Shown: piece after piece, positions 22,188-58,298 of the stretch
Position numbering within the stretch: the stretch's first letter is position 1
Layout of the letters: each line of letters starts with the position of its first letter
Assembly: GCA_945893185.1 (NCBI GenBank)
Contig: CAMDDW010000006.1
Coordinates: forward strand, 13,495-77,494
Length of the DNA stretch: 64,000 nt
From: Akkermansia muciniphila
Lineage (GTDB): Bacteria; Verrucomicrobiota; Verrucomicrobiia; Limisphaerales; UBA9464
Direction of reading: 5' to 3'
Notes under the pieces: generated by a model
Told to the model about the DNA's origin: nothing
What the model saw: the letters and a program-made list of their open reading frames with translations, nothing else
The model's database searches: none
Translations under genes and position numbers: made by a program

Positions 22188-22236
22188 GTTGTTTAGGTCG
22201 AAGGAGATTGTTGCAATCGGGTCATTGGGCCAAGGG

Positions 22237-22980: not shown

Positions 22981-23201
22981 TGTCTTCCAACAGGAAACGG
23001 CACCCGGTCAACCCATTGCCAGAGGATTCTCGCGACAAGCCAAATCAGAAATTTTCGGGACCCTGAGCACCGACACCACTACAGGTGTTTGCGCCGTTCT
23101 GAAACCCACGGCCCGTTGCCGGTTTCAAAGCCACGGTTTTGCCCTGTTCTTGGAGGGGGGGCTTCCGGATTGAGCCACCGCGTCAGTGACGGGATAAAAA
23201 C

Positions 23202-23584
23202 CGATGAAACCTGCCGGTTTGAAAACCACTGAGCGCAGAAACTCAGCGGATCATCGATCCGACCTGAGATTGTCGGTTGCCTAAACGAATTCTAATAAAC
23301 TCTGGTGGGCCTCAGTCGCATTCGGCCTCATCTGGAAGAAGGAAAAAACGCTGGAGCTCATCCGGAAAGAAAACGGATTTGAGGATCCGGCAAAACCGCG
23401 GATTTCAAACCGGCAACTTTACGTGGGTTCCAGAACGATGCTGACACGACCGCGTTTCTTCCTTCTTCGAATGGCACCCGAATGCATTCAGAGACCAATA
23501 GGGCGAACCAGGATCCGCTTGGGCAACGAACAAGAAGAGGGCCGATTGATGAGGCGGTGAATTTCAAACCGGCAGGTTTCATCG
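23202..23584. repeat. 383-bp segment bounded by a perfect 23-bp inverted repeat made of REP-like hairpin units
   Basis: cgatgaaacctgccggtttgaaa (23202-23224) is the exact reverse complement of tttcaaaccggcaggtttcatcg (23562-23584). Each arm contains the hairpin aaacc-N4-ggttt. A third unit, tttcaaaccggca, lies at 23403-23415. A related hairpin, tgaaacc...ggtttca, lies at 23100-23127. Confidence 0.7.
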
Positions 23585-23672
23585 ATTTTCACGCCGTCGC
23601 TGACATACTGAAGACTTCCTCATCCTAAACAGTCCTAAACAGCCAGTCCCAATCAGCGATTCATCGAGAAAC

Positions 23673-24668: not shown

Positions 24669-24768
24669 CGAGACCCAAGTAAGTCAAAAATATTGAACCT
24701 GTCACTTTATTTGGGTTTGACTGGTTGACTGTTGGGAACTGGTGCTCTATCGAATGATTATTCGCTTT

Positions 24769-26010
24769 ATGAGGGTTTTAAATTCTTGGGTTTCGTGCGC
24801 TTTGGGTTCGTTGGTGGCTTTGTCTGCTTTCGGGGCGGATTGGCCTCAGTGGCGGGGTGATTCCCGCAGGGACCATTCTCCAGACAAGGGCTTGCTGGCC
24901 CAGTGGCCTCAGGAGGGACCAAAACAGGTCTGGTCGTTCAACAATGCGGGCTCGGGTTATGCCGGCTTCGCGATTGCGAAAGACTCCCTCTTCACAATGG
25001 GTCTCCGGGATGGACAGGAATTTCTGATAGCAGTCAACGCTTCCACTGGAAAAGAATTGTGGAGCTCTTCAGCGGGCCAAAAATACCCGAATGGTTGGGG
25101 GGATGGCCCTCGAATGACTCCGACGGTGGATGGTGATCGAGTCTTCGCCATCGGTGGACAGGGCCTACTGATCTGCGTGGAGGCCAAGAACGGAAAATTG
25201 ATCTGGTCCAAGAATCTGGTGACCGATCTGGGCGGTCAGCTCCAAGATTGGGGTTATACCGAATCTCCTCTGGTGGTCGGCGATATTGTCATCTGCACCC
25301 CGGGTGGACCTCAGGGAACTCTCGCAGCATTAGACAAATCCTCCGGTGCAGTCCGATGGCGCACTTCAGGGCTCACGGACAAGGCTCAGTATTCTTCTCC
25401 AATCCTGATCCAACACGACGGCCAACCTCAGGTCGTCCAGTTGGTGATGAATCGCTTCTTCGGGGTATCCCCCAAGGATGGCTCCGTTCTATGGAAGAAA
25501 GACTTTCCAGGACGGGTGGCCGTCATTCCCACCCCCATCTATGAGGACGGGATCGTTTACGTGACCGCTGGATATGGTGTGGGATGTGAGGCGGTTCGCT
25601 TGGGCACAAATAACTCAATCGCTCCACTTTACTCCAACAAAGTGATGAAGAATCACCACGGCGGGGTTGTTTGCGTCGATGGATACCTTTACGGCCACTC
25701 CGACGGGGCTGGCTGGGTCTGCCAAGAACTTAAAACCGGCAAAGAAATCTGGTCCCACAAGGGTTTTGGGAAGGGATCGGTCACCTACGCCGATGGAAAG
25801 CTCATCTGCCTCGATGAGCGCAATGGGGATGTCGCTCTGGTGGAGGCGAGTACTCAGGGATGGAAGGAGTTGAGTCGCTTCAAGCTGGCTCCGCTAAGCT
25901 CCAAGCGGAGTCCTCAGGGAGGGATTTGGCCGCACCCGGTCGTTGTCAACGGACGACTCTACCTGCGCGATCAGGAGTTGCTCCACTGCTTCAATGTGAA
26001 GTCCCCGTGA
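24769..26010 (+). CDS. secreted PQQ-like beta-propeller repeat protein
   Basis: Signal peptide MRVLNSWVSCALGSLVALSAFG, then DWPQWRGDSRRDH and repeated propeller-blade motifs. The ORF track begins upstream at a GTG (24742). The ATG at 24769 gives a canonical signal peptide. Confidence 0.85.
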   Translation: MRVLNSWVSCALGSLVALSAFGADWPQWRGDSRRDHSPDKGLLAQWPQEGPKQVWSFNNAGSGYAGFAIAKDSLFTMGLRDGQEFLIAVNASTGKELWSSSAGQKYPNGWGDGPRMTPTVDGDRVFAIGGQGLLICVEAKNGKLIWSKNLVTDLGGQLQDWGYTESPLVVGDIVICTPGGPQGTLAALDKSSGAVRWRTSGLTDKAQYSSPILIQHDGQPQVVQLVMNRFFGVSPKDGSVLWKKDFPGRVAVIPTPIYEDGIVYVTAGYGVGCEAVRLGTNNSIAPLYSNKVMKNHHGGVVCVDGYLYGHSDGAGWVCQELKTGKEIWSHKGFGKGSVTYADGKLICLDERNGDVALVEASTQGWKELSRFKLAPLSSKRSPQGGIWPHPVVVNGRLYLRDQELLHCFNVKSP

Positions 26011-26110
26011 TGATCCTTGGTTCGTCGATCGCCGACGGGCCTACTTTATTCTTAGAGGGCTCCTCCGGTCCCCTACTCGTTTGCTGGCTAGTGCATTGCT
26101 CCCCGGTGCA

Positions 26111-26944
26111 TTACTCCCGCGAGGCGTGAAGGTCGCACCAAAACTCGCGTCCATGGGAGGTCCAGTGCCGATAATGGCGGTGCCACAGGGCTTTGACCGC
26201 ATCACCGGACACCCATGTTCCCGTCAGGTTTGATCCAAAATCGCCTGAGGAACCGATCGGAAAATCACGTCCTGGAAACCGCCGGGACCGCTGCCCCAAC
26301 GTCCGGATCCGCTGATAACCCGCCAGTTTACGGATGAGGCGATAGGGCCACGCCCGATGCGCCGTCAGGATTCTTGGGAATTGCGCCGTCCAACCCAATG
26401 GCCCGGACCAATAGTCGATCGGAAGCAATGAACTTTGCTCCACTAGCATAAATCGTCGGTAGCCCAGCGCCTCACAAGCATCCACCAAGGCCACATCGGA
26501 GACCTCCACCGACAGGTAATCGGGCAAGCCTACTTCGCGGAGTCCATCGAGGCAGAAATGGTCAGCACTTTCGATGTCCACTTTGAGGTAGTGCGGAACC
26601 CCGTGTTGACGCAGTAGATCTCCAAAACGGAGGGCGGGCACTGTCACCTTCCGATGCCGATGGCCGCCGCGAGCCGCGCTGGCCACGTCGAGTGCACTCC
26701 ATTCCGGATGATCTTCGTTGATCCAGAACTCCACTTCACCAGGTTCTCCCGCCACGGCCACGTTCTGAATCACCAACCGGCCATCGCGAACGGCTTCTGG
26801 AAAACGGGCCGCTACTTGACCACAGAAAGCCTCGTTGGCCTCAACGGCAACGACTCTGAAACCGCATTCGAGATAGAATCCCGCGTCGTCACCATTGTTC
26901 ATCCCCACATCAAAGATGAGGTCCGGAGTGGGTGACGTGTTCAT
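26111..26944 (-). CDS. FkbM family SAM-dependent methyltransferase
   Basis: Internal ATG at 26944 (MNTSPTPDLIFDVGMNNGDDAGFYLECGFRVVAVEAN...). This is the FkbM-type N-terminal SAM-binding motif, and LKVDIESAD is also present. Confidence 0.8.
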   Translation of the reverse strand: MNTSPTPDLIFDVGMNNGDDAGFYLECGFRVVAVEANEAFCGQVAARFPEAVRDGRLVIQNVAVAGEPGEVEFWINEDHPEWSALDVASAARGGHRHRKVTVPALRFGDLLRQHGVPHYLKVDIESADHFCLDGLREVGLPDYLSVEVSDVALVDACEALGYRRFMLVEQSSLLPIDYWSGPLGWTAQFPRILTAHRAWPYRLIRKLAGYQRIRTLGQRSRRFPGRDFPIGSSGDFGSNLTGTWVSGDAVKALWHRHYRHWTSHGREFWCDLHASRE

Positions 26945-27398
26945 TGGGGGAAAAGCTAATGACGCCCGCGCTTGGAGAACAGATTTTTGGTAAGAGCACC
27001 GGGCTCCACGAATCGAACCTCGGAAACCAGATCGTAAATCGGCGAAGGGGCGATTGATTGAGCCCCAGATCAACTCGCAGTCCCGATTTCCCACCGGCAC
27101 GAAAAGCGACAATCAGCCATCAAGTCTATTTAACGCACCGTTATCCACCATTTGTTCGAATCCATACTTATCAGCGTCAAAATTTTCCTAGTACTGCGAC
27201 CTCCCTTGACTTGAAGCGCACCGGCTGAAGTCTCGTCATCGAAGGTTCACGAAATCGTAACGGTTCACCTAATCGCTTTTTAAACTTCCGGCATCGCCTG
27301 GTTGGCGAATCGTCAGAAACAAAAGCGTTTTGGGGTAGAACGGGGTCCATCGGCTACTAACCCGGCCGGCGGTATCTGAAGCAAACCTTGTAACAACC

Positions 27399-45786: not shown

Positions 45787-48477
45787 TCACTCCGAACCCC
45801 GAACACGAAAAAATCGTGCCCCCAGATCGACAGAAACACTCACCCGAGAAGTACCCTCCTGAGGCTGGGCGGCGACCTCTTGGACCAGCTCGAAGGGCTT
45901 CAGGAGATCCTGCGAAGCTTCCAGTTGGTAGCGCTGCCCTGCCAAGGCCGTCCATTGAATTTGCACACGCCCTTCCGGTTCTAAAGCGGCTTTCAACTCC
46001 AGCGCTGGTGCCTCCGGTAAGCGGATGGATACCCCTGAAAAAACAGGGTTTTCTCCCGCGGCCATAGGGCCTGTCGTGCCAATGAAGCCGGCATCAAACC
46101 TCCGAATCTTCGTGCCGGTGCCCACCTCCAACCCGACCCCGGCGGCGATGCGCAGCGTCTGCCCGTGGCGCAAACCACCTAGTCGGCTGCGGGGGATCGC
46201 TATCTGGATGGCGTCGGCACTGCTCACCCCCGGTGTCACCACGCCGCGCACCGAATCCGGATTCCAGGCTCGGATCCGAATGTCCGGCACCGAACTCAGC
46301 GCCGCATCCAAACGGAACACCCCCTGCCCCAGCGCCACCTCCGAGCGCGGGCGTCGAAACCGGCGATCCTGCTGCTGAGCCAGCACATCACTCACGACAA
46401 TTCCTATCGAAGGTCGAAACCCCTCGGCGAAGCTCACGCCCTCGGCGAGATCCAACCCATCGACTCCTTGTGCAGCGGAGTCCTCGGCCAGATCGCGCCG
46501 CCCGTCGCCCAATCCCGCCAAGGACGACACACCCGGCAAACCGGGCACCTCGAGAAACAAGCACACATCCGAACCCTGGGAAAACGCCAGACCCTCGAGG
46601 CTGAGATACAAGTGGGTGCTGTCCATCATCACCCGAAGCTGACCCAAATTGCTGGAGCGCCCGGTGAGCGACCCAATGGCGGGAGCTCGCGACATCCCAT
46701 GGACTTCCCAAGAGGGCGTCTGCGGGGGCAAATCCACCTCCGGAGTCCCCAACGCGGCTGCGGCCACAAGCACCGCCTCGGGCCGACGCCGAATCACTGA
46801 TTGATCCTCCACCTTCCCCTCCTGGTTCACGCAACGGACGGTCAACGTATCGCCCTCAAAGCGCAGTTGAGTAAAGTGATACACCACCCGGAAGGCCGAC
46901 TGGAATGCGGAGACTTCGCGGAGCCCGTACAAGACCGCTCCGCCACCGCCGGTGACAATTGAGGTCATGCCCTCGACGGGAATGAGTCGTTCGTAATTGT
47001 GGTCATGCCCAGAAAGGTACAATTGAACCCCATGCCGTTGGGCGATCGGCAGCAGCACCTCGGCAAATTCCCCGCCATCCGGACGCCCGTTGTAGTTGGA
47101 GTCATCGATCCGGTGGGCTGAGGAGGTTTCCCACGGGATATGGGCCAAGAGCACCTTCCAAGGCTTCTGCGAGGCGGCCAGGTCCTGATCGAGCCATCGC
47201 GCCTGCGGACTGTTGGTGCGCATGTGGTATTGGCTCAAAAAGGGTTGAAACAACACCGCGAAGTGAACATCGCCTGCATCGAAGGAGTAATACGCCTGGG
47301 GCACAGTGTTTTCGGACACATGCTCCCCATTTGGAGTGTTATTGGTGGGTGACCCGAAGACCTCCACCAGCGGCGCATAGCCGTAGTATAAATCATGATT
47401 TCCCCACGTGAACGCTGAAGCACGAGTCCGCATCCAGGGTCGTTGAACACTCAAGAAACGCAGATCGGCCAAGGATGGTGAGAAACCCGGGTACACCATA
47501 TCGCCGGCGTGCAAGACCAAGTCGGCCTCGGACCGCATCATCTGGGCTACGACGGCGTGCGGGGAAAAGTCTCCCCAACCGGAATCACCCACTACCTGAA
47601 CGGTCAACGGGCCTGCTGCGGGCAAGGTCTGGAAGGCGATTGGCGCCGTCGCGCCACCCTCGCCTTGCTTACCCAAGATCACCCGATATTGATACCGGGT
47701 TCCGGGACGCAACCCCTCCAAGCGCACCACATGGTTTGTACCCTCGGGGCCCGTCACCGCGGCTTCTTGGATCGACTCCGTCCCATATTCTACCCGAATG
47801 GACCGCGGCCACGGCGTCACGCAGCGGATCTCCGCACGATTGGAGGACACATTCTGCAGGTAAGGAGCCCGAGAGAAATTGGCCAGTATCTCGCCGGTAA
47901 AAACAGGCCAGCGAGAATACACCCCGTCCGCGTGCAACTGGAGGGTCACCCAATTGGTTCCCGGGCCAATCCATCCCTCAGCCGAGCCCATCGGAATCAA
48001 CTCCGGGCTCCCTGAACCGCGCGGACTTGGGATCGCAGTGAACGGCACCGGAGTCCCCGGCTCTCCGGTGAATCCACGTCGCACCCACTCTCGACCATTC
48101 AAGCTCAGCACGAAGCCGCCTGAATAGTCCACACGCAGGGAGAGCCACCGCACGTCGGCCCCCTCCGGAACCACGAATGCACGCCGCAAGAGCACGCGTT
48201 CCCAGCCGTTGGTGTTAGGGAACCGGGTCGATTCTCCATAATTGCTCGTCCCAAACCCACCGGGCCCCTCCGACCAACCCGTCGCGTCAAAGCCGAGAGT
48301 TTGCCAGTTCGCCGGAGCCTCGGCCAGGGATCCCGCGGCCAAGAACCTCCACCGATCGGAGAGCCCCACCAATGCGACATCATCACCCGCCCTCGTTGTC
48401 CCCGCCAACAGGCAGAGCACCCAGAACCCGAAGCAACGAGCCCACTTCAACATAATCCGAAAGGCTACCCGCCCCAC
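45787..48477 (-). CDS. secreted metallophosphoesterase (purple-acid-phosphatase-like) with large N- and C-terminal accessory domains
   Basis: 896 aa. Calcineurin-like motifs: VVGDSGWG, LHAGDMVY, WGNHD, GHDHNYER. PAP N-terminal-like RPGTRYQYRV. Signal peptide. Confidence 0.85.
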   Translation of the reverse strand: MGRVAFRIMLKWARCFGFWVLCLLAGTTRAGDDVALVGLSDRWRFLAAGSLAEAPANWQTLGFDATGWSEGPGGFGTSNYGESTRFPNTNGWERVLLRRAFVVPEGADVRWLSLRVDYSGGFVLSLNGREWVRRGFTGEPGTPVPFTAIPSPRGSGSPELIPMGSAEGWIGPGTNWVTLQLHADGVYSRWPVFTGEILANFSRAPYLQNVSSNRAEIRCVTPWPRSIRVEYGTESIQEAAVTGPEGTNHVVRLEGLRPGTRYQYRVILGKQGEGGATAPIAFQTLPAAGPLTVQVVGDSGWGDFSPHAVVAQMMRSEADLVLHAGDMVYPGFSPSLADLRFLSVQRPWMRTRASAFTWGNHDLYYGYAPLVEVFGSPTNNTPNGEHVSENTVPQAYYSFDAGDVHFAVLFQPFLSQYHMRTNSPQARWLDQDLAASQKPWKVLLAHIPWETSSAHRIDDSNYNGRPDGGEFAEVLLPIAQRHGVQLYLSGHDHNYERLIPVEGMTSIVTGGGGAVLYGLREVSAFQSAFRVVYHFTQLRFEGDTLTVRCVNQEGKVEDQSVIRRRPEAVLVAAAALGTPEVDLPPQTPSWEVHGMSRAPAIGSLTGRSSNLGQLRVMMDSTHLYLSLEGLAFSQGSDVCLFLEVPGLPGVSSLAGLGDGRRDLAEDSAAQGVDGLDLAEGVSFAEGFRPSIGIVVSDVLAQQQDRRFRRPRSEVALGQGVFRLDAALSSVPDIRIRAWNPDSVRGVVTPGVSSADAIQIAIPRSRLGGLRHGQTLRIAAGVGLEVGTGTKIRRFDAGFIGTTGPMAAGENPVFSGVSIRLPEAPALELKAALEPEGRVQIQWTALAGQRYQLEASQDLLKPFELVQEVAAQPQEGTSRVSVSVDLGARFFRVRGSE

Positions 48478-48654
48478 GCCGCCTCGAGAACACCAAAACG
48501 CCAGAACCGTTCAGCCTTACTGGCAGGAAAGAAAAAACTTAATTCGTGAAAGGTTTTAGCCGATGCCGACGAAAACCCTCATGACGCCTGAAACGGGCCC
48601 ACGGCAACCGACGCCCCAGGCCTTCAGAAAAACCAACCACAGCAACTTCAAACC

Positions 48655-49431
48655 ATGCACAACCATCGCCACCTCCACCGCTACTGCCTCTCCCTGATGC
48701 TCACCCTCCTGGCAACCACGCTGACCACGTCGGAGGCCTACGCCGCCAAAAGCTCCTCCGCCAAACCCAAACCCAAACCGGGAGCCACAGGGCTTGAGAA
48801 GCTTGAGAAAGTAGCGAGCATATTTCAAGTTCTGTATAATGTTGGATCTAAGACTGTAGATAGCGCTAACGATTACGCAATATATACAGCAAGCGCACAA
48901 CTTGAAAGGTATAGTGAAAGACTGGATTCTTGGGATCATGACACCAAAGAATCCATTGAAAGGGTCCATTGGGTTGACCAAAACGACGGAACATCCAAGT
49001 ATATTACAAGATTTTACAAAAATGACAAACGAACGGATAGAACGAGTACAGAAGCTTTCCCGCACGGATGGGGAAACTGCACGAACAATTGTGGAATCAT
49101 TTCAAGTAAAGACGGCACGATCGTAGGTGGAGAGAGAACTGCGGTTTATCCAACCAAATTCAGATTAATAACAACACTCGATCGAACACCTCAGTCCACT
49201 GTGCACCTACGTGACCCCATTCCAGTTTGGTATGTTTTCCAATTCTGCAGTCCATCACCTACTAATGCTTGTGGAGTACTTTTCGATAGTACGTTACCAA
49301 TCAAGAGCATGGGTTTTGAAGGCAGAGCGTTCAGAAACCGCGCATCGAATCAGGTGCTTGATTATCCAATTTCAAATTCATTTAGCCAGTCGGGTGAACC
49401 ATTGGTCTTCGTCACGGTTTCAGATGAATAA
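48655..49431 (+). CDS. hypothetical secreted protein (orphan), first gene of the AT-rich island
   Basis: 258 aa. Signal peptide LSLMLTLLATTLTTSEAYA, then a K/P-rich linker. The mature part has 4 Cys and no motif I recognise. The 5-prime part (about 135 nt) is GC-rich and the rest is AT-rich. Confidence 0.6.
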   Translation: MHNHRHLHRYCLSLMLTLLATTLTTSEAYAAKSSSAKPKPKPGATGLEKLEKVASIFQVLYNVGSKTVDSANDYAIYTASAQLERYSERLDSWDHDTKESIERVHWVDQNDGTSKYITRFYKNDKRTDRTSTEAFPHGWGNCTNNCGIISSKDGTIVGGERTAVYPTKFRLITTLDRTPQSTVHLRDPIPVWYVFQFCSPSPTNACGVLFDSTLPIKSMGFEGRAFRNRASNQVLDYPISNSFSQSGEPLVFVTVSDE

Positions 49432-49472
49432 AATATAAATAAACCACCCCCTCAAACTGATAGGATTCATTG

Positions 49473-50156
49473 ATGAAATTTTACGTTGCATCGTTGCTAT
49501 TTGGAATCTTACTCTTGATCTTTATTTTAAACTTAAGGAACCACGTTTCCATAAGTGATCCAGCAAAAATAGTAACACCAACTATTGCTCAAGAGCTTTC
49601 TCCAGATCCCAAAAATAACCTTACGCTTCAGCGCTCCAACCATCTGAAACAACTTCACGAATCAAAGAACGGCGAGACGGTACAGCTAATAGATCTAAAA
49701 AATATGGTCAAGGCTGCACATCCGGCCGCAGAACAATTGGCTGATTTATTGTTGGAAAGCGGTTTTACTCAGCAAGAAGCAGCACAAATTTTCGTGAGTG
49801 TTCATAATGACCTCGGGAGGATACGGCAGATTGAAGATATGGTGGCGACGGATTGGACTGAAATAACAGCAGGGATTGCAAAGCTTGAGCAGCGTACGGA
49901 TCTTACTGAAGCGCGCAAAAGACAAGAATATTATTCAGAGTCTTCTAGGTTAAGTTTTTTGAACATTGATATGCGAGGGGAACAGTCCAAGATACGAGAA
50001 AGGTTGTTAGAAACTGTAGGTGTACCCCGCAGTGCAGAAATAGATTTATTTCGAACCCAGTTACTTTCCATATTTCCGCGCGGTCCATTGCCCGATACGG
50101 TAATTCAAGAACTTGAGAATACCACCCGAAATCTGATTAAACGCGACTCACCGTAA
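49473..50156 (+). CDS. hypothetical single-pass membrane protein (orphan), paralogue of the next gene
   Basis: ATG at 49473. N-terminal TM FYVASLLFGILLLIFIL, then a predicted helical, charged ectodomain. AT-rich codon usage unlike the rest of the window. Confidence 0.6.
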   Translation: MKFYVASLLFGILLLIFILNLRNHVSISDPAKIVTPTIAQELSPDPKNNLTLQRSNHLKQLHESKNGETVQLIDLKNMVKAAHPAAEQLADLLLESGFTQQEAAQIFVSVHNDLGRIRQIEDMVATDWTEITAGIAKLEQRTDLTEARKRQEYYSESSRLSFLNIDMRGEQSKIRERLLETVGVPRSAEIDLFRTQLLSIFPRGPLPDTVIQELENTTRNLIKRDSP

Positions 50157-50272
50157 TTATCATAAAAACCAGTAACCGGAACTTATGTTTTATTTTCTGG
50201 CTCCGAGAAAAGATATATATATTATCGCTCCCCCTTCAGAAGACTCTACTGAAAACCCTTAAATAAGCATTT

Positions 50273-50997
50273 ATGAAACGCTTTCCTTACGTATTGCTAC
50301 TGTTTGTTGGGCTTTTAATTTTAGCGTTGTGGGTGCTTATCGGGTTACGATCGAAGCAACAGGATCCCGAAGTAGCCAATATTTCGCCGCCTCAAGCGAC
50401 TACGCAAACTGTAGAGACCACAAAGGCACCGCCGCCCTCATTCCGCGATCTGATTCCGCTACCAGAAGAGGGAGCAAACCGGTCTGGTACTGGAACTCGA
50501 AAAGTCTACCAAAGGTTAGTTCCATTCCGCCCCAAATCTGAACTACCTCAAGTCTTGCACGGTAACCTGCATGCTCAACAGTTGTTAATCGTATTAGAGG
50601 AAGCACAAGTCAACCCAGCCATCATCCAATTAGAGTTCAAGAATATTTATAACAACCTAGGTTCCATCAAAGATTTACAAGTGCGCATCGCTGAAAGCAT
50701 GGTTGAGCTGCATGGAAGAATCGGGAATATTATGCGAACGAACAGCAAAGACACCGATGCGATAGATCGTGAATTGAGAGGTTTGGATACTGCTGAGTGG
50801 AGTAGTACCAATCTGATGGCGATCTGATCGAAGAACACCGCCAGGCAATCCTTTCTGCACTCGCCGGAACGAAGATTGCGTCTGACCCTGAACTCCAAAA
50901 GAAGCTCTTTGACATCAAAGTGCGTTTGAACCTGTCGCCTGAGGCCAGTGAGTTCATGAAATCCTACAGTCCTATTATCACAACGCAGGCCCCGTGA
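50273..50997 (+). pseudogene. paralogue of 49473..50156 interrupted by a -1 frameshift near 50824
   Basis: ORF 50273..50827 (N-terminal TM VLLLFVGLLILALWVLIGL) stops at the TGA at 50825-50827. Reading from 50824 in the -1 frame gives LIEEHRQAILSALAGTKIASDPELQKKLFDIKVRLNLSPEASEFMKSYSPIITTQAP, ending at 50997. This tail aligns with the C-terminus of the upstream paralogue (IRERLLETVGVPRSAEIDLFRTQLLSI). Confidence 0.5.
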
Positions 50998-51013
50998 TGG
51001 AGGCACTGAATCG

Positions 51014-51046
51014 GCCTGAAGTCCGTCGAAGGGAGGGACTTCAGGC
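51014..51046 (+). terminator. 10-bp perfect hairpin at the right edge of the AT-rich island (weak U-tract)
   Basis: gcctgaagtc (51014-51023) pairs with gacttcaggc (51037-51046), loop 13 nt, followed by ttgaac. Confidence 0.3.
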
Positions 51047-51558
51047 TTGAACATAGAGTCTCCGATGCTGTTACCCGAGCCCGCAGGGTTCGGTTTGCCT
51101 GACCGATAGGTGAACGATCCATAGCAGGCGGAGAGTTCTAGGGCTGGACGGGAATCTCAAAAACAACACCTGCCAGCGGGGGAGGACCAAATCCACACCG
51201 GAGATTCCCGGGATTCGGTGACCAAAACGAGTGATCCGCCAAGCCGCCGGGGAGTGAGCTCCATGCTTGCTCCTCGGCAAGACTCCGAATCGGCTGCAAA
51301 TCGACGCGTTGAACGCATTTAAAAAGCCCCTCGATGACCATTCGGCGCTAGCTCGTAGGCCAGCAGATGGACAAACAGGTAGGGGAACAGGTAGGGGAAA
51401 ATAAAACCCAAGAATCTTGAACGGGAAGCCCGGCAGCAGGGGCCCTTTAGCGCTCGGCAAATCCTCGAGGCCTTCCCGCAGGCCGAGCTTGATGATTTCG
51501 GCGACCAACACGGCTCCGCCCCCGGAAACCAGTGAACTCGTGGTCACCTGGCTGCCTT

Positions 51559-51588
51559 CCATCCGCCATTGCCACATCCGCCATTGCC
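51559..51588. repeat. perfect 15-bp tandem duplication 43 bp upstream of the dehydrogenase gene start
   Basis: catccgccattgcca at 51559-51573 and again at 51574-51588. Confidence 0.8.
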
Positions 51589-51630
51589 AGTTGCAGGAAA
51601 GACTCCTTGGCCATCAAGTTCGTCTACTCC

Positions 51631-54600
51631 ATGGCCCTCACTCGTCTCGGCTCTATCTGCGCTCTGACCCTCGGCATGCTCTTGGCGGGCGCCGCCGACT
51701 TTCCGTCGCCTTTCAACTCCGAGCCCGATACGAATTCGGCCGCGATGCCCGCCGCCCAGGTCGCAGCTGAGATGAAGCTGCCGCCGGGCTTTAAGGCCAC
51801 GGTGTTTGCCGCCGAGCCCGACGTACAAAATCCCATCGCGCTCGCCTGGGATGCGCGCGGCAGGCTTTGGGTCGCAGAAAACTACACCTACGCCGAGCGG
51901 GCGCGTAAATTTGAACTGAGCCTGCGCGACCGAATTCTGCTCTTCGAGGACAAGGACGGGGATGGGCATTTCGATTCGCGCCGGGTTTTTACCGACGATG
52001 TCCAGATGCTTACGAGCATCGAGATCGGGCGCGGCGGGGTGTGGATGATGTGCCCACCGCAACTGACGTTCATTCCCACGGCAAACGGCGGCGATGCGCC
52101 GACCGGTCCCGCAGAGGTCGTGCTCGATGGCTTCACGCCTCCGACTGAGAACTATCATAACTACGCCAATGGTCTGCGTTTCGGACCGGATGGCTGGCTC
52201 TATGGGCGATGCGGTGCTTCGGCTCCCGGCGAAATTGGTGCCCCCGGAACACCGAAGAACCGACGCATTCCCCTGCGCGGTACGCTCTGGCGCTATCATC
52301 CCGTTCGGAAGGTCTTCGAGGCCCTCAGTTCCGGGTGCACCAACCCGTGGGGACACGACTGGGATGCGCACGGAGAGCTGTTCTTCATCAATACCGTCAA
52401 TGGCCATCTCTGGCATGGCATCACCGGGGCGCACTACGTACGACCTCACACATTGGACCCCAATCCACGGGTCTACACGCTCATCGACCAGCACGCCGAC
52501 CACTGGCACTTCGACACGGCGAGCGACTGGACCAAGTCACGAGATGGCGCGGCCGACGCTTTCGGCGGTGGGCATGCTCACATCGGCATGATGATCTACC
52601 AGGGCGACGACTGGCCTGCCGAGTATCGCGGCCGGCTCTTCACGCTGAACATGCACGGCCGGCGTGCGAACCAAGAAATCCTCGAACGCCGAGGCTCCGG
52701 CTATGTGGGCAAACACGGCCCGGATTTTTTACGCGCCACAGACAACTGGTTTCGCGGCATGGAACTGACCTACGGCCCGGACGGCGGCGTGTATGTGGCC
52801 GACTGGAGCGACACCGGCGAGTGCCACGACAGCACCGGTGTGCACCGCACGAGCGGACGGATCTACAAGATCACCCACGGCGGGAACGAGGGTTCTGTCA
52901 ACGGTTCAGCGTCATTGACCGGAGACGTCGCCGTGAAGGCGCGACGCCCGGCCGACCTCACCACGCTCTCTGTCCACGAACTCGTTCTCTTGCACACGCA
53001 CGCCAACGAGTGGTTCCCCCGGCAAGCTCGCCTGCAACTCCTAGACCGAGCGAGAAACCCCGCTGACTTGCGATCCGCTAAGAGGGATCTGAGGTCCCTG
53101 TTCGACTCCGAAAAGAATGCGATCCATCAACTCCGCGCCTTGTGGTCGCTGCATGCACTCGGTGCCACGGATGAAGCCTTCCTCATCACCTTACTGCGCC
53201 ATCCCGACGAACACCTGCGCACCTGGGCCGTGCGCTTGATGACCGACGACAGGGCACTGGACAAGGTCGTCGAAGTGGCATCGTCCGACCCGGTTCGGAG
53301 GATCACTTCATCCCCCGGCCTAGCACGCTTGCTGGCGCAACAGGCCCGCACAGAAACCTCTGGCCTGGTCCGGCTCGCCTTGGCCTCCACACTTCAACGC
53401 CTGTCCATCGAAGAACGGATTCCCCTCGCCGCTGCGCTCGTCGCCCACCGGGAGGACGCCGCCGACCACAATTTGCCGGCTCTCATTTGGTACGGGCTCA
53501 TTCCCGTGGCCGATTCATTCCCAGGCGAACTACCCAAGCTCGCCAACGTCTGTGAACTCCCGCTGACCCGCCGGCTTATCGCTCGCCGTCTTGCCGAGGA
53601 CCTCGAGAGGCAACCTGCCCCCGTGAACTCTCTGATCCTCCTCGCATCCGCCAAGGGAGAAGGGTTCCAATCCGACATTCTTTCGGGACTTGCCGACGGA
53701 CTTGCCGGCTGGCGAAAAGCCACAAAGCCGAAGGCTTGGGATGCCTTCTCCCAGCAAATAAAGAATTCAACGAATACATCCATTCGCGAACGAACCAGAG
53801 ATCTGAGCCTCGTCTTCGGTGATGGCCGCGCCCTCGATGAGCTCAAGCGTATCGCGCTTGGGAAGGATGCGGATATGAGCGCCCGCAAGGCCGCGCTGCA
53901 AACCCTCATCGAGAGCCGCCCGCCGGATTTGCGTGCGGTTTGCGAACAACTTCTGGGTGTGCGTTTCCTCAACACCATCGCCGTGCGTGGACTCGCTCAA
54001 TTCAATGACCCGTCCATCGGTGTCACGCTGGCCAAAAGCTACCGCAGCTTCCATCCCAGCGAGCAGCCCGCTGTCATGGACACGCTGGTCACCCGCCCCA
54101 TTTTTGCAAAAGCGATGCTGGAGGAACTGGCTGCCGGACGCATCCCGCTGGCCCAGGTCACGGCGTTTCACGCCCGGCAAATCCGAAGTCTTAACGACCC
54201 AGAGTTAAACAGGCTCTTGACCACGGTTTGGGGCGAGTTGCGCGAGGCGTCCGCCGACAAACGAGCGCTAGTGACGCGATTTAAAACGCAGTTCAGCCCG
54301 AGCGTGCTCGCTGGGGCCAACAAGAGCGCGGGCCGTGCCCTGTTCAACCAGGCCTGTGCCGCCTGCCACCGACTCTACGGTCAGGGCGGCGAGATCGGGC
54401 CAGACCTCACTGGTTCGGGCCGCGACAACCTGGACTATCTCCTGGAGAACATCGTGGATCCCGGCGGAGTGGTGACAGCGGACTTCCGCATGACGGTGGT
54501 AAACCTCAAGGACGGCCGCACGTTGAATGCACTCATCGCCGCGAAGACCGACCGCACGCTCACCCTCAAGTCGATGACCGACACCCTCACCGTCCAACGC

Positions 54601-54741
54601 GATGAGGTGACTTCCATGCAAGAATCGGAGCTCTCGCTCATGCCGGACGGACTTTTGGAATCGTTCACCCTCCAGCAGCAGCGCGACATCCTTGCCTATC
54701 TGATGCACCCATCGCAGGTACCCTTACCGAGTGGCCCGTGA
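51631..54741 (+). CDS. PVC-type membrane-bound-dehydrogenase-domain / HEAT-repeat / CxxCH heme-binding protein (fused form)
   Basis: Start at the ATG at 51631 (signal peptide MALTRLGSICALTLGMLLAGA). N-terminal propeller-like domain: LPPGFKATVFAAEPDVQNPIALAWDARGRLWVAE. Central HEAT-like repeats. C-terminal heme domain: CAACHRLYGQGGEIGPDLTG...SLMPDGLLE...QQRDILAYL. Confidence 0.9.
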   Translation: MALTRLGSICALTLGMLLAGAADFPSPFNSEPDTNSAAMPAAQVAAEMKLPPGFKATVFAAEPDVQNPIALAWDARGRLWVAENYTYAERARKFELSLRDRILLFEDKDGDGHFDSRRVFTDDVQMLTSIEIGRGGVWMMCPPQLTFIPTANGGDAPTGPAEVVLDGFTPPTENYHNYANGLRFGPDGWLYGRCGASAPGEIGAPGTPKNRRIPLRGTLWRYHPVRKVFEALSSGCTNPWGHDWDAHGELFFINTVNGHLWHGITGAHYVRPHTLDPNPRVYTLIDQHADHWHFDTASDWTKSRDGAADAFGGGHAHIGMMIYQGDDWPAEYRGRLFTLNMHGRRANQEILERRGSGYVGKHGPDFLRATDNWFRGMELTYGPDGGVYVADWSDTGECHDSTGVHRTSGRIYKITHGGNEGSVNGSASLTGDVAVKARRPADLTTLSVHELVLLHTHANEWFPRQARLQLLDRARNPADLRSAKRDLRSLFDSEKNAIHQLRALWSLHALGATDEAFLITLLRHPDEHLRTWAVRLMTDDRALDKVVEVASSDPVRRITSSPGLARLLAQQARTETSGLVRLALASTLQRLSIEERIPLAAALVAHREDAADHNLPALIWYGLIPVADSFPGELPKLANVCELPLTRRLIARRLAEDLERQPAPVNSLILLASAKGEGFQSDILSGLADGLAGWRKATKPKAWDAFSQQIKNSTNTSIRERTRDLSLVFGDGRALDELKRIALGKDADMSARKAALQTLIESRPPDLRAVCEQLLGVRFLNTIAVRGLAQFNDPSIGVTLAKSYRSFHPSEQPAVMDTLVTRPIFAKAMLEELAAGRIPLAQVTAFHARQIRSLNDPELNRLLTTVWGELREASADKRALVTRFKTQFSPSVLAGANKSAGRALFNQACAACHRLYGQGGEIGPDLTGSGRDNLDYLLENIVDPGGVVTADFRMTVVNLKDGRTLNALIAAKTDRTLTLKSMTDTLTVQRDEVTSMQESELSLMPDGLLESFTLQQQRDILAYLMHPSQVPLPSGP

Positions 54742-54838
54742 GTCTCTGAAGCTCTCACGAGAGGATGTCTGGCGGCGGAGACTTCGGTCGAAGGGTAACA
54801 GGAACGATTCGTCGTTTGACGGATGCAACCAATCTCCG
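54640..54838. repeat. direct repeat copy 1 (gene 3-prime end plus about 97 bp downstream)
   Basis: Aligns with 54905-55104. The first roughly 115 nt are near-identical with a few substitutions, the middle roughly 35 nt are diverged, and the last 51 nt are identical (tcgaagggtaacaggaacgattcgtcgtttgacggatgcaaccaatctccg). Confidence 0.85.
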
Positions 54839-54904
54839 AGGACCATAGGGGTCAGTTCTTGATATTGTTAACTACCCGCGCAGCTTCCTCCGGCGATACA
54901 AGTG

Positions 54905-55006
54905 ATGCCGGACGGACTTTTGGAATCGTTCACCACCGAGCAGCAGCGCGACATCCTTGCCTATCTGATGCACCCATCGCAGGTACCGTTGCCCAGTGGC
55001 CCATGA
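54905..55006 (+). pseudogene. relic C-terminal fragment (33 codons) of a PVC heme-binding protein
   Basis: In frame it reads MPDGLLESFTTEQQRDILAYLMHPSQVPLPSGP-stop. This nearly matches the last 33 residues of 51631..54741 (MPDGLLESFTLQQQRDILAYLMHPSQVPLPSGP). No upstream coding continuation. Confidence 0.65.
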
Positions 55007-55104
55007 GTCTCTGAAGCTCTTGCAGAAGAGTCTCTCGGGGGTGAGAACTCGGGTCGAAGGGTAACAGGAACGATTCGTCGTTTGACGGATGCAACCAATC
55101 TCCG
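54905..55104. repeat. direct repeat copy 2
   Basis: See copy 1. It ends 24 bp before the start codon of the next gene (55129). Confidence 0.85.
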
Positions 55105-55128: not shown

Positions 55129-57132
55129 ATGAAGAAATTTACGTCGCTCGTTCTCTCCGGTGCGGTTTTTTCGCTCGTCCTGACCGCCCGCGCCGACGCA
55201 ACCCGTTCCGGTCGCGACAATGCGCTGGGCCAACTCAAGCAGATGAAGGTCGCTGATGGACTCGAGGTGAAGCTTTTCGCTCTCGAACCCGCGGTGGTCA
55301 ACCCGGCCAACCTCGACATCGATGCCTCGGGTCGCATCTGGGTCACCGAGGGGGCCAATTACCGGTTGTTCCAAAAATGGGGCAAGCTCCGCCCAGATGG
55401 CGACCGCATCCAAGTGCTGGAAGACACCAACGGGGACGGCGAGGCCGACAAGGCCACGACATTCTACCAGGGCAACGAGATCAATACCGCGCTGGGGATT
55501 TGCGTGCTGGGAGACAAGGTCATCGTCAGTTGCTCACCCAACGTCCTCCTGTTCGAGGACAAGAACGGCGACCTCAAGGCCGATGGTCCGCCCAAGATTA
55601 TCTTCACCGGCATCAAGGGCGTGGATCACGATCACGGCGTCCATGCATTCATCTTCGGCCCCGACGGAAAGCTCTACTTCAACATGGGCAATGACGGCAG
55701 GGAGTTGCACACGGCCGATGGCCGGTTGGTCGTCGATGCCGAGGGCAACGAAGTCATCACCCGAGGCAAACCCTATCGGCAAGGCCTCGCATTCCGACTG
55801 AACGAGGACTTCACGGGGGTCGAGGTCTTGGGACACAACTTCCGCAACAACTATGAATTGACGGTGGATTCGTTCGGCACTGTTTGGCAGTCCGACAACG
55901 ACGATGACGGCAACCAGGGCGTCCGCATCAACTACGTAATGGAGCACGGCAATTTCGGCTACAGCGATGAACTAACCGGCGCGGGCTGGGGTCAGAAGCG
56001 CACGGGATGGGAGGGCGAAGTTCCCAAGCGTCACTGGCATCTCAACGATCCTGGAGTCGTGCCCAACCTGCTGCAAACCGGCGCAGGTTCACCCACCGGC
56101 ATTACGATCTACGAAGGCAAGTTGCTGCCGGAAGTCTTCCAGAACCAACTCATCCACTGCGACGCCGGGCCGCGCGTGGTGCGGGCCTATCCCGTCACGA
56201 AGTCGGGCGCGGGCTACGATGCGACGATCAAGGACATCCTCACGAGCGAGGATTCGTGGTTCCGTCCCAGCGACGTCGGCGTGGCACCGGACGGATCGAT
56301 CTTCGTGGCCGACTGGAATGACTCGGGCGTCGGCGGTCACTACATGGCGGACCATAAGCTAGAGACGATGACGGGGCGCATCTATCGTGTGGCTCCTCCC
56401 GGCCACAAGGCCCGTGGGTCGACGCCAGACTTTAAGTCCGCCAAGGGCGCCGTCGCCGCGCTCCAATCGCCCAACCAAGCAACCCGCTATCTGGCCTGGC
56501 ATGCGCTCCACGGCATGGGCAGCAAGGCTGAGGGCGAGTTGAAGAAGCTCTGGGCAAACAACGATCCCCGGATGCGCGCCCGTGCGTTGCAGTTGCTCGC
56601 TCGCATCGACACCAAGAAGGCCGTCGAGTGGACCAGCAAGGGGTTGAAGGACCCCGAAAGCGACCTCCGCATTACCGCTCTCCGCATCGCTGGCGAACGC
56701 GGGTTGGACGTGATTCCCATCGTAAAAACCCTGATCAATGATGCCAGCGTCCAAGTTCGCCGCGAAGCCATCCTAGCACTCCGCCATAGCAAAGCAGCGG
56801 AGGCGCCCGCCTTGTGGGCCAAACTTGCGCAGCAGTATGATGGAAAGGATCGGTGGTATCTCGAAGCCCTAGGCATCGCCGCCGACAAGCAATGGGACGC
56901 CTACCTGACGGCGTGGCAGCAACTCGCTCACGATGTGTCCAAATCACCCATTGGACGCGAGCTCGTCTGGCGTTCCCGCGCCAAGGCGACGCCGGATTTG
57001 TTAGTCCGACTTATCAGCGACTCGGGAACCAACGAGGCAGAGCGGAATCGCTACTTGCGCTCCCTCGACTTCCAAAGCGGGCCTGAGAAAGACGCCGCGC
57101 TGCTCCAACTGCTGACCATTCCTGCCAAGTGA
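55129..57132 (+). CDS. PVC-type membrane-bound-dehydrogenase-domain / HEAT-repeat protein (split form, N-terminal component)
   Basis: 667 aa. Signal peptide MKKFTSLVLSGAVFSLVLTARA. VADGLEVKLFALEPAVVNPANLDIDASGRIWVTEG and GDGEADK motifs. C-terminal HEAT-like repeats. No heme motif. Confidence 0.9.
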   Translation: MKKFTSLVLSGAVFSLVLTARADATRSGRDNALGQLKQMKVADGLEVKLFALEPAVVNPANLDIDASGRIWVTEGANYRLFQKWGKLRPDGDRIQVLEDTNGDGEADKATTFYQGNEINTALGICVLGDKVIVSCSPNVLLFEDKNGDLKADGPPKIIFTGIKGVDHDHGVHAFIFGPDGKLYFNMGNDGRELHTADGRLVVDAEGNEVITRGKPYRQGLAFRLNEDFTGVEVLGHNFRNNYELTVDSFGTVWQSDNDDDGNQGVRINYVMEHGNFGYSDELTGAGWGQKRTGWEGEVPKRHWHLNDPGVVPNLLQTGAGSPTGITIYEGKLLPEVFQNQLIHCDAGPRVVRAYPVTKSGAGYDATIKDILTSEDSWFRPSDVGVAPDGSIFVADWNDSGVGGHYMADHKLETMTGRIYRVAPPGHKARGSTPDFKSAKGAVAALQSPNQATRYLAWHALHGMGSKAEGELKKLWANNDPRMRARALQLLARIDTKKAVEWTSKGLKDPESDLRITALRIAGERGLDVIPIVKTLINDASVQVRREAILALRHSKAAEAPALWAKLAQQYDGKDRWYLEALGIAADKQWDAYLTAWQQLAHDVSKSPIGRELVWRSRAKATPDLLVRLISDSGTNEAERNRYLRSLDFQSGPEKDAALLQLLTIPAK

Positions 57133-58298
57133 GAGAGGTGGGCGTGCGCCGGTCTTGGTGGGTACCAACGACGGCGGGTCTCAGAACGGCGGCCCTTCGA
57201 TCCACCGTTCTGGCATTGACCGTTTCCTGGTTCACCCTCTCGCCTGGCATCTCAGCGGACGACTCGCGCACCCAAGTAATGCTCGAGGCATTGAGCCGTC
57301 TTAAAGGGCGAGATCTGGAGGCGAACCCAGCGCTCAAGAATGCTGTGTTGAACGTGCTCAAGCAGGTGGACGGCAAGCCGGCTGCCGTAGAGATCATTCG
57401 CGATTTCCAACTCAAGGATCAGGCTCAAGCCCTCCTCGACTTCGCGTTGAAGAATCCCACAGACCCCGCCGCGGCCGAGGCGTTGAAAACCATTCTCGCC
57501 TTCGAACGCATCGATCTCATTAGGGCCTCACTCGCGGCCGACCTCCCGGCGGGAGTTTTGGTCGATTTGCTCGGGGTCACCGCCGAGAACCGAATCTCTC
57601 CGCTTTTAATTCCGCTCGTCGTGGACCCGAAGCGCGATGTTGGTTTGCGTCGTCGGGCGGTCAAATCCCTCGCTCGCGTCCAAGAGGGGGTGGTTGGCCT
57701 GATCGCCTTGGCTAAGGACGACCGTTTGCCTCCCGACGTGAGGGGAATCGCTACGACCGAACTGAGCGCCGTGCGTTGGCCCCAGCTGAAGGCCGAGGCG
57801 GCACGGGTGCTTCCACCGCCTGTGGTCCAGGGCGACCGGGCACTACCACCCATCGCCGAATTACTCCAATGGACGGGAGACGCCTCGAAAGGCGCGGTTA
57901 TTTTCCGACGGCCCACGGTCAATTGCATCGGCTGCCACCAGGTCGGAACCGAGGGATCTGATTTTGGGCCGGCCCTCACCGAGATCGGAACCAAACTGGG
58001 CAAGGACGCCTTGTTTGATTCCATTCTCGATCCCAGCGCAGGCATCGGATTCGGCTACGAAGCCTGGCAGTTCGAATTAAAGAACGGGGACGAAGCCTTC
58101 GGCCTCATTGGCAGCGAGACCGAAGATCAGGTCGTATTGAAGGTTCCGGGTGGGACACCTCAGAAACTCAAGAAATCGGAGATCCGTCAGCGGACCCAGC
58201 AGAAACTCTCCATCATGCCGGCCAACTTGCAGGCTGCATTGAGCGCCCAAGAATTCGTGGACTTGATCGCGTATTTGGCGTCCTTGAAGAAACCGTGA
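57129..58298 (+). CDS. HEAT-repeat / CxxCH heme-binding protein (split form, C-terminal component)
   Basis: 389 aa. GTG start overlaps the upstream stop (GTGA). Signal-peptide-like AALRSTVLALTVSWFTLSPGISA. C-terminal CIGCHQVGTEGSDFGPALT...SIMPANL...EFVDLIAYL. Confidence 0.85.
   Translation: MREVGVRRSWWVPTTAGLRTAALRSTVLALTVSWFTLSPGISADDSRTQVMLEALSRLKGRDLEANPALKNAVLNVLKQVDGKPAAVEIIRDFQLKDQAQALLDFALKNPTDPAAAEALKTILAFERIDLIRASLAADLPAGVLVDLLGVTAENRISPLLIPLVVDPKRDVGLRRRAVKSLARVQEGVVGLIALAKDDRLPPDVRGIATTELSAVRWPQLKAEAARVLPPPVVQGDRALPPIAELLQWTGDASKGAVIFRRPTVNCIGCHQVGTEGSDFGPALTEIGTKLGKDALFDSILDPSAGIGFGYEAWQFELKNGDEAFGLIGSETEDQVVLKVPGGTPQKLKKSEIRQRTQQKLSIMPANLQAALSAQEFVDLIAYLASLKKP

Follow-up and report, generated by a model that had tools for sequence, protein, structure and literature searches.

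The window analysed here, a 64,000-nt stretch of contig CAMDDW010000006.1, contains at positions 48655-51046 a patch of about 2.2 kb that is far richer in A+T than the genes on either side of it. The question is where this patch came from and what its genes do. A first-pass annotation, made from the letters alone, described three orphan envelope proteins inserted as an island between core genes, and took the composition as a sign of recent horizontal acquisition. We found instead a hypervariable two-gene cassette, resident in freshwater Verrucomicrobiota and specific to this lineage, with recombination swapping its alleles both within species and across them; we hold this evolutionary description with high confidence. 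The first gene (open reading frame 1, ORF1) encodes a constant signal peptide and a Lys-Pro (KP) linker, followed by a variable beta-rich domain of ~210-250 aa. The second gene, directly downstream, encodes one N-terminal anchor, a Pro-rich spacer and a conserved domain with hypervariable patches. A-type ORF1 is always followed by ORF2 (each A-type ORF1 with DNA examined has an ORF2 homologue directly 3'), and B-type ORF1 is always followed by ORF3.

The cassette at the same site in relatives

The flanks of the window are matched in loci L009-L012 at 97.8% (nucleotides) and 98% (amino acids) identity. In these loci ORF1 is only 40% identical (B-type), ORF2 is missing and an intact ORF3 of 241 aa is present. 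When the window was compared with L009/L010 using blastn, the breakpoints fell at 48791|48792, directly past the signal peptide and linker of ORF1, and at 50177|50178, homology resuming at 50178 with the last 28 codons of a B-type ORF1. Consequently, a 1386-bp module on the + strand (A module, 48792-50177), made up of the ORF1-A mature domain and ORF2, sits in place of 663 bp of the B-type mature domain. This module continues the reading frame of the constant signal peptide and is followed downstream by a stub of ORF1-B and by ORF3. The same three-gene layout with the same stub recurs in two independent metagenome-assembled genomes (MAGs; L018 and L019), in which ORF3 is intact and of another allele. 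The nearest copies of the A module away from this locus are the A-type pair of L001/L020 (~70% identical).

A homologous cassette was always present in the ~25 loci carrying the LeuA/metallophosphoesterase (MPE) flank, which represent at least three species-level backgrounds, and no empty site was found among them. A-type pairs also occur at a site between SecA/YbbD-head and glyoxalase (L001, L020 and L023), and more distant B-like pairs (50% identity) lie between MetK and TrpD (L013 and L016); in one MAG both types are present, an A pair at one locus and a B pair at another. The cassettes have a G+C content of 0.40-0.52 in hosts of 0.60-0.63. Everywhere they are 0.10-0.18 under the host, and ~0.1 under it in a host of 0.67. 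Cassette G+C partly follows the host, and alleles up to 60-75% different in protein share the low composition. Because the cassettes of all relatives share it, even in the 67% G+C host, low G+C is a lasting trait of the family and does not signal recency. A foreign island between core genes is contradicted by the homologous cassettes, of the same low G+C, in the ~25 relatives with this flank. The same genes with the same composition in all relatives, the outcome that the first-pass annotation had itself considered incompatible with its island, is nearly what was found; gene content and alleles differ among the relatives.

The composition of the patch was measured by scanning G+C in 500-nt windows over the whole window, and G+C at third codon positions (GC3) was compared with that of 32 host ORFs. 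Outside the island G+C averaged 0.605 (standard deviation, sd, 0.029; minimum 0.508), while the segment 48800-50900 had 0.430, with single 500-nt windows down to 0.404 (6-7 sd under the rest). GC3 was 0.70 ± 0.065 in the host, compared to 0.38, 0.39 and 0.46 in the mature part of ORF1, ORF2 and ORF3 respectively. Altogether, G+C and GC3 of the patch are 4-7 sd under the host values, and the claim that composition and codon usage differ strongly from the host is correct. The hand counts behind it were accurate (60-nt lines at 47001, 49441 and 50161 recomputed as 58.3, 38.3 and 31.7%). The sharp fall that had been placed at 48790-48810 matches to the base the homology breakpoint 48791|48792 against near-identical strains, and the slower recovery over 50820-51000 was also borne out (GC3 0.59 in the ORF3 tail). 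By contrast, an insertion into an intergenic site does not describe the left border: GC3 is host-like (0.82) over codons 1-45 of ORF1, which encode the signal peptide and linker, so that the compositional border lies inside ORF1, as an in-frame junction. GC3 climbs to the host level at both edges of the cassette. The more the alleles diverge, the lower it is, but the correlation is weak (Spearman -0.37, overlapping windows), and conserved interior segments are AT-rich too. The low G+C is possibly tied to reduced recombination between diverged alleles, with less GC-biased conversion.

Synonymous (pS) and nonsynonymous (pN) differences dated the module relative to its surroundings. The A module is 97-99% identical in nucleotides to L018/L019, compared to 90-95% in the flanks. 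In the comparison of the window with L019, pS was 0.064 in ORF1-A and 0.045 in ORF2, compared to 0.19 in MPE and LeuA; the A module is therefore younger than its flanks. Recent horizontal acquisition thus holds in part: there was a recombinational import younger than the flanks, but low G+C does not attest it and the donor was the clade's own gene pool. Cassette and genome divergence do not run in parallel. In L025 and L028, pS is 0 over the first 250 codons of MPE, yet ORF1-B has a pN of 0.128 and a pS of 0.149. Between species, pS in the flanks is 0.42-0.45 and in ORF1-B only 0.20-0.28. Consequently, alleles either cross strain and species boundaries or persist as trans-species polymorphisms.

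The flanks are under ordinary purifying selection (pN/pS 0.1-0.18), compared to a pN/pS of 0.3-0.85 in ORF1-B. Sliding windows along ORF3 revealed pN/pS of 0.00-0.02, at a pS of 0.2-0.5, in residues 91-130 and 191-210. Values of 0.65-1.1 were found in ORF3 residues 61-90 and 131-190 and in mature residues 41-110 of ORF1-B; outside its hypervariable region, ORF1-B has 0.12-0.4. Judged from these substitution patterns, the cassette genes are functional, with localised hypervariability.

The integrase or att-like repeats that the first-pass annotation suggested looking for were not found around the cassette. There is no integrase or transposase beside the island, where the neighbours are the MPE and DUF7133/cytochrome c genes, and the search for flanking direct or att-like repeats gave only chance-level 10-25-mers. 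Rfam, tRNA models included, gave no hits anywhere in the window, the tRNA negative resting on these models. No relatives of the cassette proteins were found in the phage, plasmid and IMG/VR collections, and an origin as a phage moron or from a plasmid was rejected as far as these collections go.

The exported protein and its membrane-anchored partners

The constant 5' part of ORF1 (48655-48791, + strand) encodes the signal peptide MHNHRHLHRYCLSLMLTLLATTLTTSEAYA|AK and a Ser/(KP)n linker. In alignments it is identical or near-identical between A- and B-type alleles, with homology to the B-type strains up to 48791. The N-terminal hydrophobic segment is moderate (Kyte-Doolittle 19-residue hydropathy, KD19, of 1.1) and is followed by an A-x-A site (A-Y-A|A). 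ORF1 had been described as a secreted, Cys-containing protein of 258 aa, and this agrees with its signal-peptide-like N-terminus and its four Cys past residue 30 (five overall). Past the predicted cleavage site, the exported protein has a Ser-rich and (Lys-Pro)3-6 tract in the window and in all B-type alleles, and the number of repeats differs among alleles. Upstream of ORF1, the divergent intergenic region (48478-48654) is the presumed cassette promoter. It is common to strains with A and B alleles and lies within the left homology block (97.8% identity), whose end is at 48791; a sigma-70 consensus was not found on its + strand.

The A-type mature domain (48792-49431, + strand) comprises an N-terminal helix and long beta-hairpins, and contains a CxxxC motif and the invariant motifs DYxxYTAS, RxHW and FPHGWG. 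Its pN/pS compared to the A2-locus copies is 0.16-0.27. The 34 relatives of ORF1, none of them with a Pfam domain, form two clades: clade A (245-265 aa, with the CxxxC motif) and clade B (278-296 aa, without Cys). The three invariant motifs are common to both clades (invariant residues include D73, R103, H105, H137 and W139 in ORF1 numbering), whose mature domains are about 30-40% identical (34-40% in the tested comparison). An AlphaFold2 (AF2) model of mature ORF1, built with 27 sequences, reached a predicted local distance difference test score (pLDDT) of 74.5 and a predicted template modelling score (pTM) of 0.69, again with an N-terminal helix followed by long beta-hairpins; an earlier model of full-length ORF1 had a pLDDT of 63.6. 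Foldseek searches against PDB (twice) and BFVD gave no credible match (E >= 0.05, template modelling score, TM, <= 0.22). Chains of MACPF, gasdermin and cholesterol-dependent cytolysin pore states headed the Foldseek list; this is owed to the long hairpins (TM < 0.1), and they were not counted as evidence.

ORF2 (49473-50156, + strand) is the partner gene of A-type ORF1; its product has a membrane anchor at the N-terminus and, after it, an acidic domain of ~200 aa. Its single hydrophobic segment spans residues 4-22 (KD19 2.55). The start is most likely the ATG at 49473, because the homologues begin with MKFY. There are seven homologues. The pN/pS of ORF2 is 0.4-0.5. The ORF1-B stub (50178-50262, + strand) corresponds to the last ~28 codons and the stop codon of the displaced B-type ORF1, without a start codon. 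It aligns to the 3' end of ORF1-B in L009, L006, L008, L004 and L021 (88% to ORF1-B residues 226-249 in tblastn), and L018 and L019 have the same stub.

ORF3 (50273-50997, + strand) is the partner gene of B-type ORF1 and is represented here by a class B1 allele that is a pseudogene. It is not a gene of 184 aa: alignment with the intact alleles (241 aa) shows that 1 nt is missing between 50809 and 50810 from a gene of 241 codons, so that the remaining 62 codons continue in another frame to 50997. The deletion lies outside any homopolymer, and contigs from four separate runs (X1-X4) reproduce it exactly. At 50258 and 50827, contigs from these samples branch into an alternative ORF3 allele, so that the two ORF3 alleles coexist in the population. 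The intact ORF3 has 44 relatives. The protein has one strongly hydrophobic N-terminal segment, a Pro-rich spacer past this anchor and an acidic remainder, a build like that of TonB. The ORF2 and ORF3 families are collinear over 121 columns (hhalign probability 61%, E 8e-5) and are probably distant homologues. The proposal of two paralogous single-pass membrane proteins is thus right about the one N-terminal hydrophobic segment in each, while the relationship is only distant and ORF3 is the pseudogene of a displaced allele.

Further disrupted forms of ORF3 were found in relatives. At L037:1395-1898 a B1-class ORF3 has an in-frame stop at codon 168, and the adjacent cognate ORF1-B (296 aa) is intact, which makes this locus a natural partner-null allele. 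In a further A-type context, a contig of European Nucleotide Archive (ENA) entry ERZ1426823, the ORF3 gene (2495-2938) is called only from residue ~95 (147 aa, P0068), with a 227-aa ORF2 upstream and a DUF7133 gene downstream; an orphan ORF3 thus seems to have been disrupted a second time, independently. Two similar forms of ORF3, also of 147 aa (P0067 and P0069), stand for 15-16 sequences each. In a comparison aimed at relaxed selection, the orphan ORF3 of L018 and L019 has a pN/pS of 0.46, compared to 0.29-0.41 in non-orphans, from few differences.

A hairpin follows 17 nt past the ORF3 stop (51014-51046, + strand). Its existence was confirmed, with 14-nt arms (51014-51027 and 51033-51046; 13/14 paired) and a 5-nt loop. 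L019 and L021 have kept it, L009 and L018 in part only. The hairpin is a possible transcript end; there is no T-run after it, and the terminator scan made no call there. Contigs from lake metatranscriptomes match ORF1-A and ORF2 at 95-99%; these are contigs only, and DNA carry-over is possible.

The statement that none of the proteins has a recognisable motif proved right in domain, family, PDB-sequence and fold searches. Pfam, NCBIfam, PADLOC and PHROGs gave no significant match for ORF1-A, ORF1-B, ORF2 or ORF3, and members scanned singly gave nothing consistent; in profile searches of PDB sequences, no hit had an E value under 0.38. An exhaustive hidden Markov model (HMM) search of 1.84 billion protein cluster representatives returned 16 hits, and therefore no bridge to a known family. 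The proteins are not orphans. They belong to small families restricted to the lineage (34 ORF1, seven ORF2 and 44 ORF3 relatives), and all genome-placed members are from freshwater Verrucomicrobia or lake metagenomes. The named genomes with the family are MAGs of lake Verrucomicrobia (Lac Pavin, Lake Loclat and others), and the runs that hold the sequence are lake-water metagenomes. The two protein families and the ORF1 fold appear to be undescribed; neither family is represented in the domain databases that were searched, and both could be set up as new families.

Co-varying patches and the possible role of the pair

The hypervariable patches of ORF1-B and ORF3 fall into matching classes. In class B1, YDDGRED in ORF1-B occurs with TGTRKVxQRLVP and VRIAENMVELHGRIGD in ORF3. 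In class B2, GDVKTSTTY or GAVQEEITTE in ORF1-B occurs with QGSRKVRHYSRP and VMIAxRIVxAHTGIENV in ORF3. The association was perfect in the informative loci (13/13), and both classes are present in each species background. About nine of the 13 loci are independent, which gives an exact probability of ~0.01 under free assortment. In triples of loci, the C-terminal half of ORF1-B, residues 1-60 of ORF3 and the ORF3 tail group by species, while the hypervariable patches group by class; ORF3 residues 91-130 are mixed. For instance, residues 131-190 of the L024 ORF3 are 0.62 identical to the conspecific L009 and 0.96 to the heterospecific L008, while its ORF1-B from residue 201 to the end is 0.89 identical to L009 and 0.81 to L008. 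Distances in the two hypervariable regions correlate at 0.68, compared to 0.19-0.42 with the intervening C-terminal part of ORF1-B. Since co-variation of this kind is what epistatic selection on an interaction surface produces, we propose that the two proteins bind through these patches. From the sequence comparisons, ORF1 and its partner probably form a cognate binding pair.

The sequence of events in the window was as follows. An A module recombined in frame onto the constant signal-peptide region, displacing a B-type mature domain; the ORF1-B stub (28 codons) and the B-type partner ORF3 stayed behind, and ORF3 was later frameshifted. ORF1 is predicted to be exported by Sec and cleaved, and ORF2/ORF3 to be signal-anchored with a periplasmic C-terminal domain. 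The exported protein and the anchored partner would then meet in the periplasm and bind allele-specifically via the co-varying patches, so that the allele class would define specificity. Negative frequency-dependent selection may keep the polymorphism. Our best overall explanation, put forward tentatively, is a resident hypervariable cassette encoding a cognate specificity pair of exported protein and membrane partner, probably toxin/immunity-like. Toxin/immunity was judged the likeliest role because of the strict A-ORF2/B-ORF3 pairing, the displaced stub and orphan partner, the several pairs per genome and the long-lived class polymorphism. The toxin/immunity-like layout, offered as speculation by the first-pass annotation, thus gains comparative support from the allele classes, co-varying patches, displaced stub and orphan partner. 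A specific role as toxin or antagonistic effector, with the membrane-anchored protein as its cognate immunity factor, is conceivable, somewhat short of probable. We consider it possible, with slightly more doubt, that the cassette represents a hitherto undescribed, minimal polymorphic effector/partner family of uncultured freshwater Verrucomicrobiota, in which a Sec-exported beta-rich protein, with a fold unmatched in PDB, and a partner built like TonB have co-adapted patches as specificity classes, kept as trans-species polymorphisms and exchanged as cassettes on the constant signal peptide. Such a toxin/immunity or recognition system would require no dedicated secretion scaffold.

The pattern of a displaced fragment with an orphan partner has been described for Rhs and contact-dependent inhibition (CDI) loci (PMC3967940). 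The cassette shares with Rhs and CdiA-CT/CdiI a constant 5' region joined in frame to interchangeable 3' domains (here at 48791|48792), a cognate partner gene directly downstream that co-varies with the variable domain, and the displacement of an old module by a new one, leaving a start-less fragment and its partner (in the window, L018 and L019). As in those systems, the same modules occur in different strains and species, and A+T content is higher in the variable modules than in the constant part; in Rhs, the core extensions are AT-rich. However, the constant part is here a 45-residue Sec signal peptide and linker and not a 100-300 kDa Rhs/YD or filamentous haemagglutinin scaffold; there is no type V or type VI secretion system (T5SS, T6SS) or PAAR/VgrG context; and the variable domains of the alleles are homologous (30-40% identity, common motifs) rather than unrelated toxin folds, with no known toxin activity. 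The locus resembles Rhs/CDI in its genetics and is not a member of these families, because both a recognisable toxin domain and a delivery scaffold are missing.

Colicins and pyocins offer a second parallel (DNase colicins E2-E9 with Im, colicin M with Cmi), in which an immunity gene follows the toxin gene, and a variable specificity patch on a conserved core co-evolves with the immunity protein. Cmi is held by an N-terminal hydrophobic segment and faces the periplasm. The differences are that there is no sequence or fold similarity, that receptor-binding and translocation domains and a lysis gene are missing here, and that the present locus is chromosomal rather than plasmid-borne, with a Sec-type export signal. 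In the IdsD/IdsE pair of Proteus mirabilis, adjacent genes with short co-varying regions define allele-specific recognition classes, much as in the cassette. Unlike ORF1 and its partner, IdsD is delivered by a T6SS and IdsE is polytopic; there is no homology, and no T6SS genes are present here. Finally, replacement flexible genomic islands (fGIs) occupy a fixed position with dissimilar versions in near-identical strains, exchanged by homologous recombination at the borders (PMC10872708). The cassette is similar in its flanks (98% identical, compared to 40% in ORF1), its breakpoints in conserved sequence, its mosaic of class and species and the coexistence of versions in one sample. It differs in size and content: fGIs span tens of kb of glycosyltransferase and polysaccharide genes, while a pair of protein genes of 1.6-2.4 kb is exchanged here, all versions being homologous and without a known domain.

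Several observations weigh against a toxin/immunity-like specificity pair. There is no toxin, immunity or other known domain and no fold match (Pfam, NCBIfam, PADLOC, PHROG, PDB and BFVD), and neither dedicated secretion or delivery genes near the cassette nor conserved neighbours across its three genomic contexts were found. A Sec signal peptide leads only to the periplasm, which leaves release and entry into a target cell without explanation. Null alleles of ORF3 exist (the frameshift in the window, the N-terminally truncated form in the other A-type contig and L037), and the truncated ORF3 beside an intact ORF1-B in L037 is awkward if ORF1-B is a self-lethal toxin. The ORF1-B sub-classes GDVKTSTTY and GAVQEEITTE have no visible counterpart in ORF3. 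Finally, with a class association based on 13 loci, ~9 of them independent, linkage may be a partial alternative.

The strongest alternative, unlikely but to be taken seriously, is envelope variation driven by phages or predators, as a miniature replacement fGI: ORF1 would be a component of the envelope or surface that serves as a receptor and ORF2/ORF3 its anchoring or assembly partner, swaps by homologous recombination would evade phages, and the partner would co-evolve only to keep binding. Very dissimilar alleles at one locus in near-identical strains, with recombination at conserved borders, fit the definition of replacement fGIs, which are tied to phage avoidance in aquatic bacteria (PMC10872708). 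The hosts are lake plankton with several alleles in one sample (loose ends at 50258 and 50827). ORF3 decays once ORF1-B is gone, as expected of a mere structural partner, and the L037 nonsense allele is tolerated. However, the ORF1-B patch co-varies with patches of an inner-membrane-anchored protein, which points to diversification of a mutual interface and not of an outward-facing epitope. ORF1 also has no sign of outer-membrane insertion (no C-terminal aromatic beta-signal, no barrel fold match), known replacement fGIs are large glycosylation clusters rather than protein pairs, and the orphan ORF3 is intact in L018 and L019 with a pN/pS near that of non-orphans (0.46, few differences). A non-lethal pair for self/non-self (kin) recognition, like IdsD/IdsE, would account for the adjacent genes, for co-varying variable regions in discrete classes that persist across species, and for strongly conserved scaffolds with short hypervariable patches in each protein. 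This reading is improbable, given that no T6SS or outer-membrane exchange genes lie near any cassette context examined and that ORF2/ORF3 have only 3-5 cytoplasmic residues, so that no signalling output is apparent. Moreover, to our knowledge, contact-dependent social behaviour is not known for planktonic lake bacteria of this kind.

A fast-evolving housekeeping envelope pair without specificity, with classes arising from linkage and few recombinations and low G+C from relaxed selection, is about as improbable as kin recognition. The raised pN/pS (0.3-0.85 compared to 0.1-0.18 in the flanks), the ORF3 null alleles and the weak fall of GC3 with allelic divergence (overlapping windows) agree with it. 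It fails to predict segments at a pN/pS of 0.00-0.02 beside patches at ~1, a polymorphism common to several species with patches grouping by class and the DNA between them by species, or the recent spread of the A module over diverged backgrounds. Least probable of all is the original reading, an unameliorated recent island from a low-GC donor between core genes, which is already largely refuted. G+C and GC3 4-7 sd under the host and the later coalescence of the A module compared to the flanks would suit it. Against these stand the homologous low-G+C cassette at this site in every relative found, and elsewhere in other genera; the composition shared by alleles up to 60-75% different in protein, with G+C partly following the host; the lack of an integrase, a tRNA (by Rfam) and flanking direct repeats, and of relatives in the phage, plasmid and IMG/VR collections; the mere 16 representatives among 1.84 billion clusters, with all placed members from freshwater Verrucomicrobia or lake metagenomes; and the left border, which is an in-frame junction within a gene.

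A striking AT-rich "island" can thus be an old, actively maintained polymorphic locus, which calls for caution in composition-based island calling. If the toxin/immunity or recognition role is true, the cassette would give initial access to antagonism or identity at the strain level in lake Verrucomicrobia, which are abundant and uncultured. It would also provide an unusually small and tractable system for the study of interface diversification (two genes of ~250 aa, natural allele classes and mapped patches).

Neighbouring genes and further observations

The left flank is a calcineurin-like MPE of 896 aa (45787-48477, - strand; Pfam Metallophos, 9e-16), divergent from the cassette and of host composition. 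It is 94-98% identical in amino acids in L009-L012, L019, L025, L027 and L028. In the sister species (L004-L008, L022, L031 and L036; e.g. L006:7351-7910) MPE is in fragments (residues ~604-793 or 653-896), and the right-hand neighbour of the cassette is ApbE and not the DUF7133/cytochrome c gene; the surroundings of the cassette are therefore prone to rearrangement. L020 and L022 (MAG MiE-22jul19-69) are syntenic with loci of uncultured lake Verrucomicrobia (96-97% amino acid identity from LeuA to ApbE). This MAG is titled "Akkermansia muciniphila", and the species label looks wrong.

The right flank (51532-54741, + strand) encodes a haem-binding CxxCH protein of 1069 aa of the Planctomycetes-Verrucomicrobia-Chlamydiae (PVC) type, with DUF7133 and cytochrome c domains (TIGR02604, 1e-116; TIGR02603, 1e-34; PF23500). 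It has host composition and is 96-98% identical in amino acids in L009, L010, L018 and L024. At the 3' end of this gene (54640-55048) there is a tandem copy of its last 36 codons (54896-55003, 86% identical), also present in L009 and L018. In L019 (L019:10827-15012, MAG contig CAJAHH010000007), compared to window 51481-54848, this first DUF7133/cytochrome c gene is missing and ~4.2 kb of other sequence is present instead, a further difference among strains immediately to the right of the cassette. Haem-binding paralogues stand in a row in the window: 51532-54741 (DUF7133, HEAT and cytochrome c in one protein), 55129-57132 (DUF7133 and HEAT) and 57129-58298 (cytochrome c). The last two, which overlap, look like a split version of the architecture of the first.

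A second, milder G+C dip is present at 22000-27200 of the window (0.545-0.577 per 2 kb, single windows 0.51). Its genes include an ORF related to IS200-like Y1 transposases (23673-24668), a BamB-like PQQ_2 protein and an FkbM-type methyltransferase.

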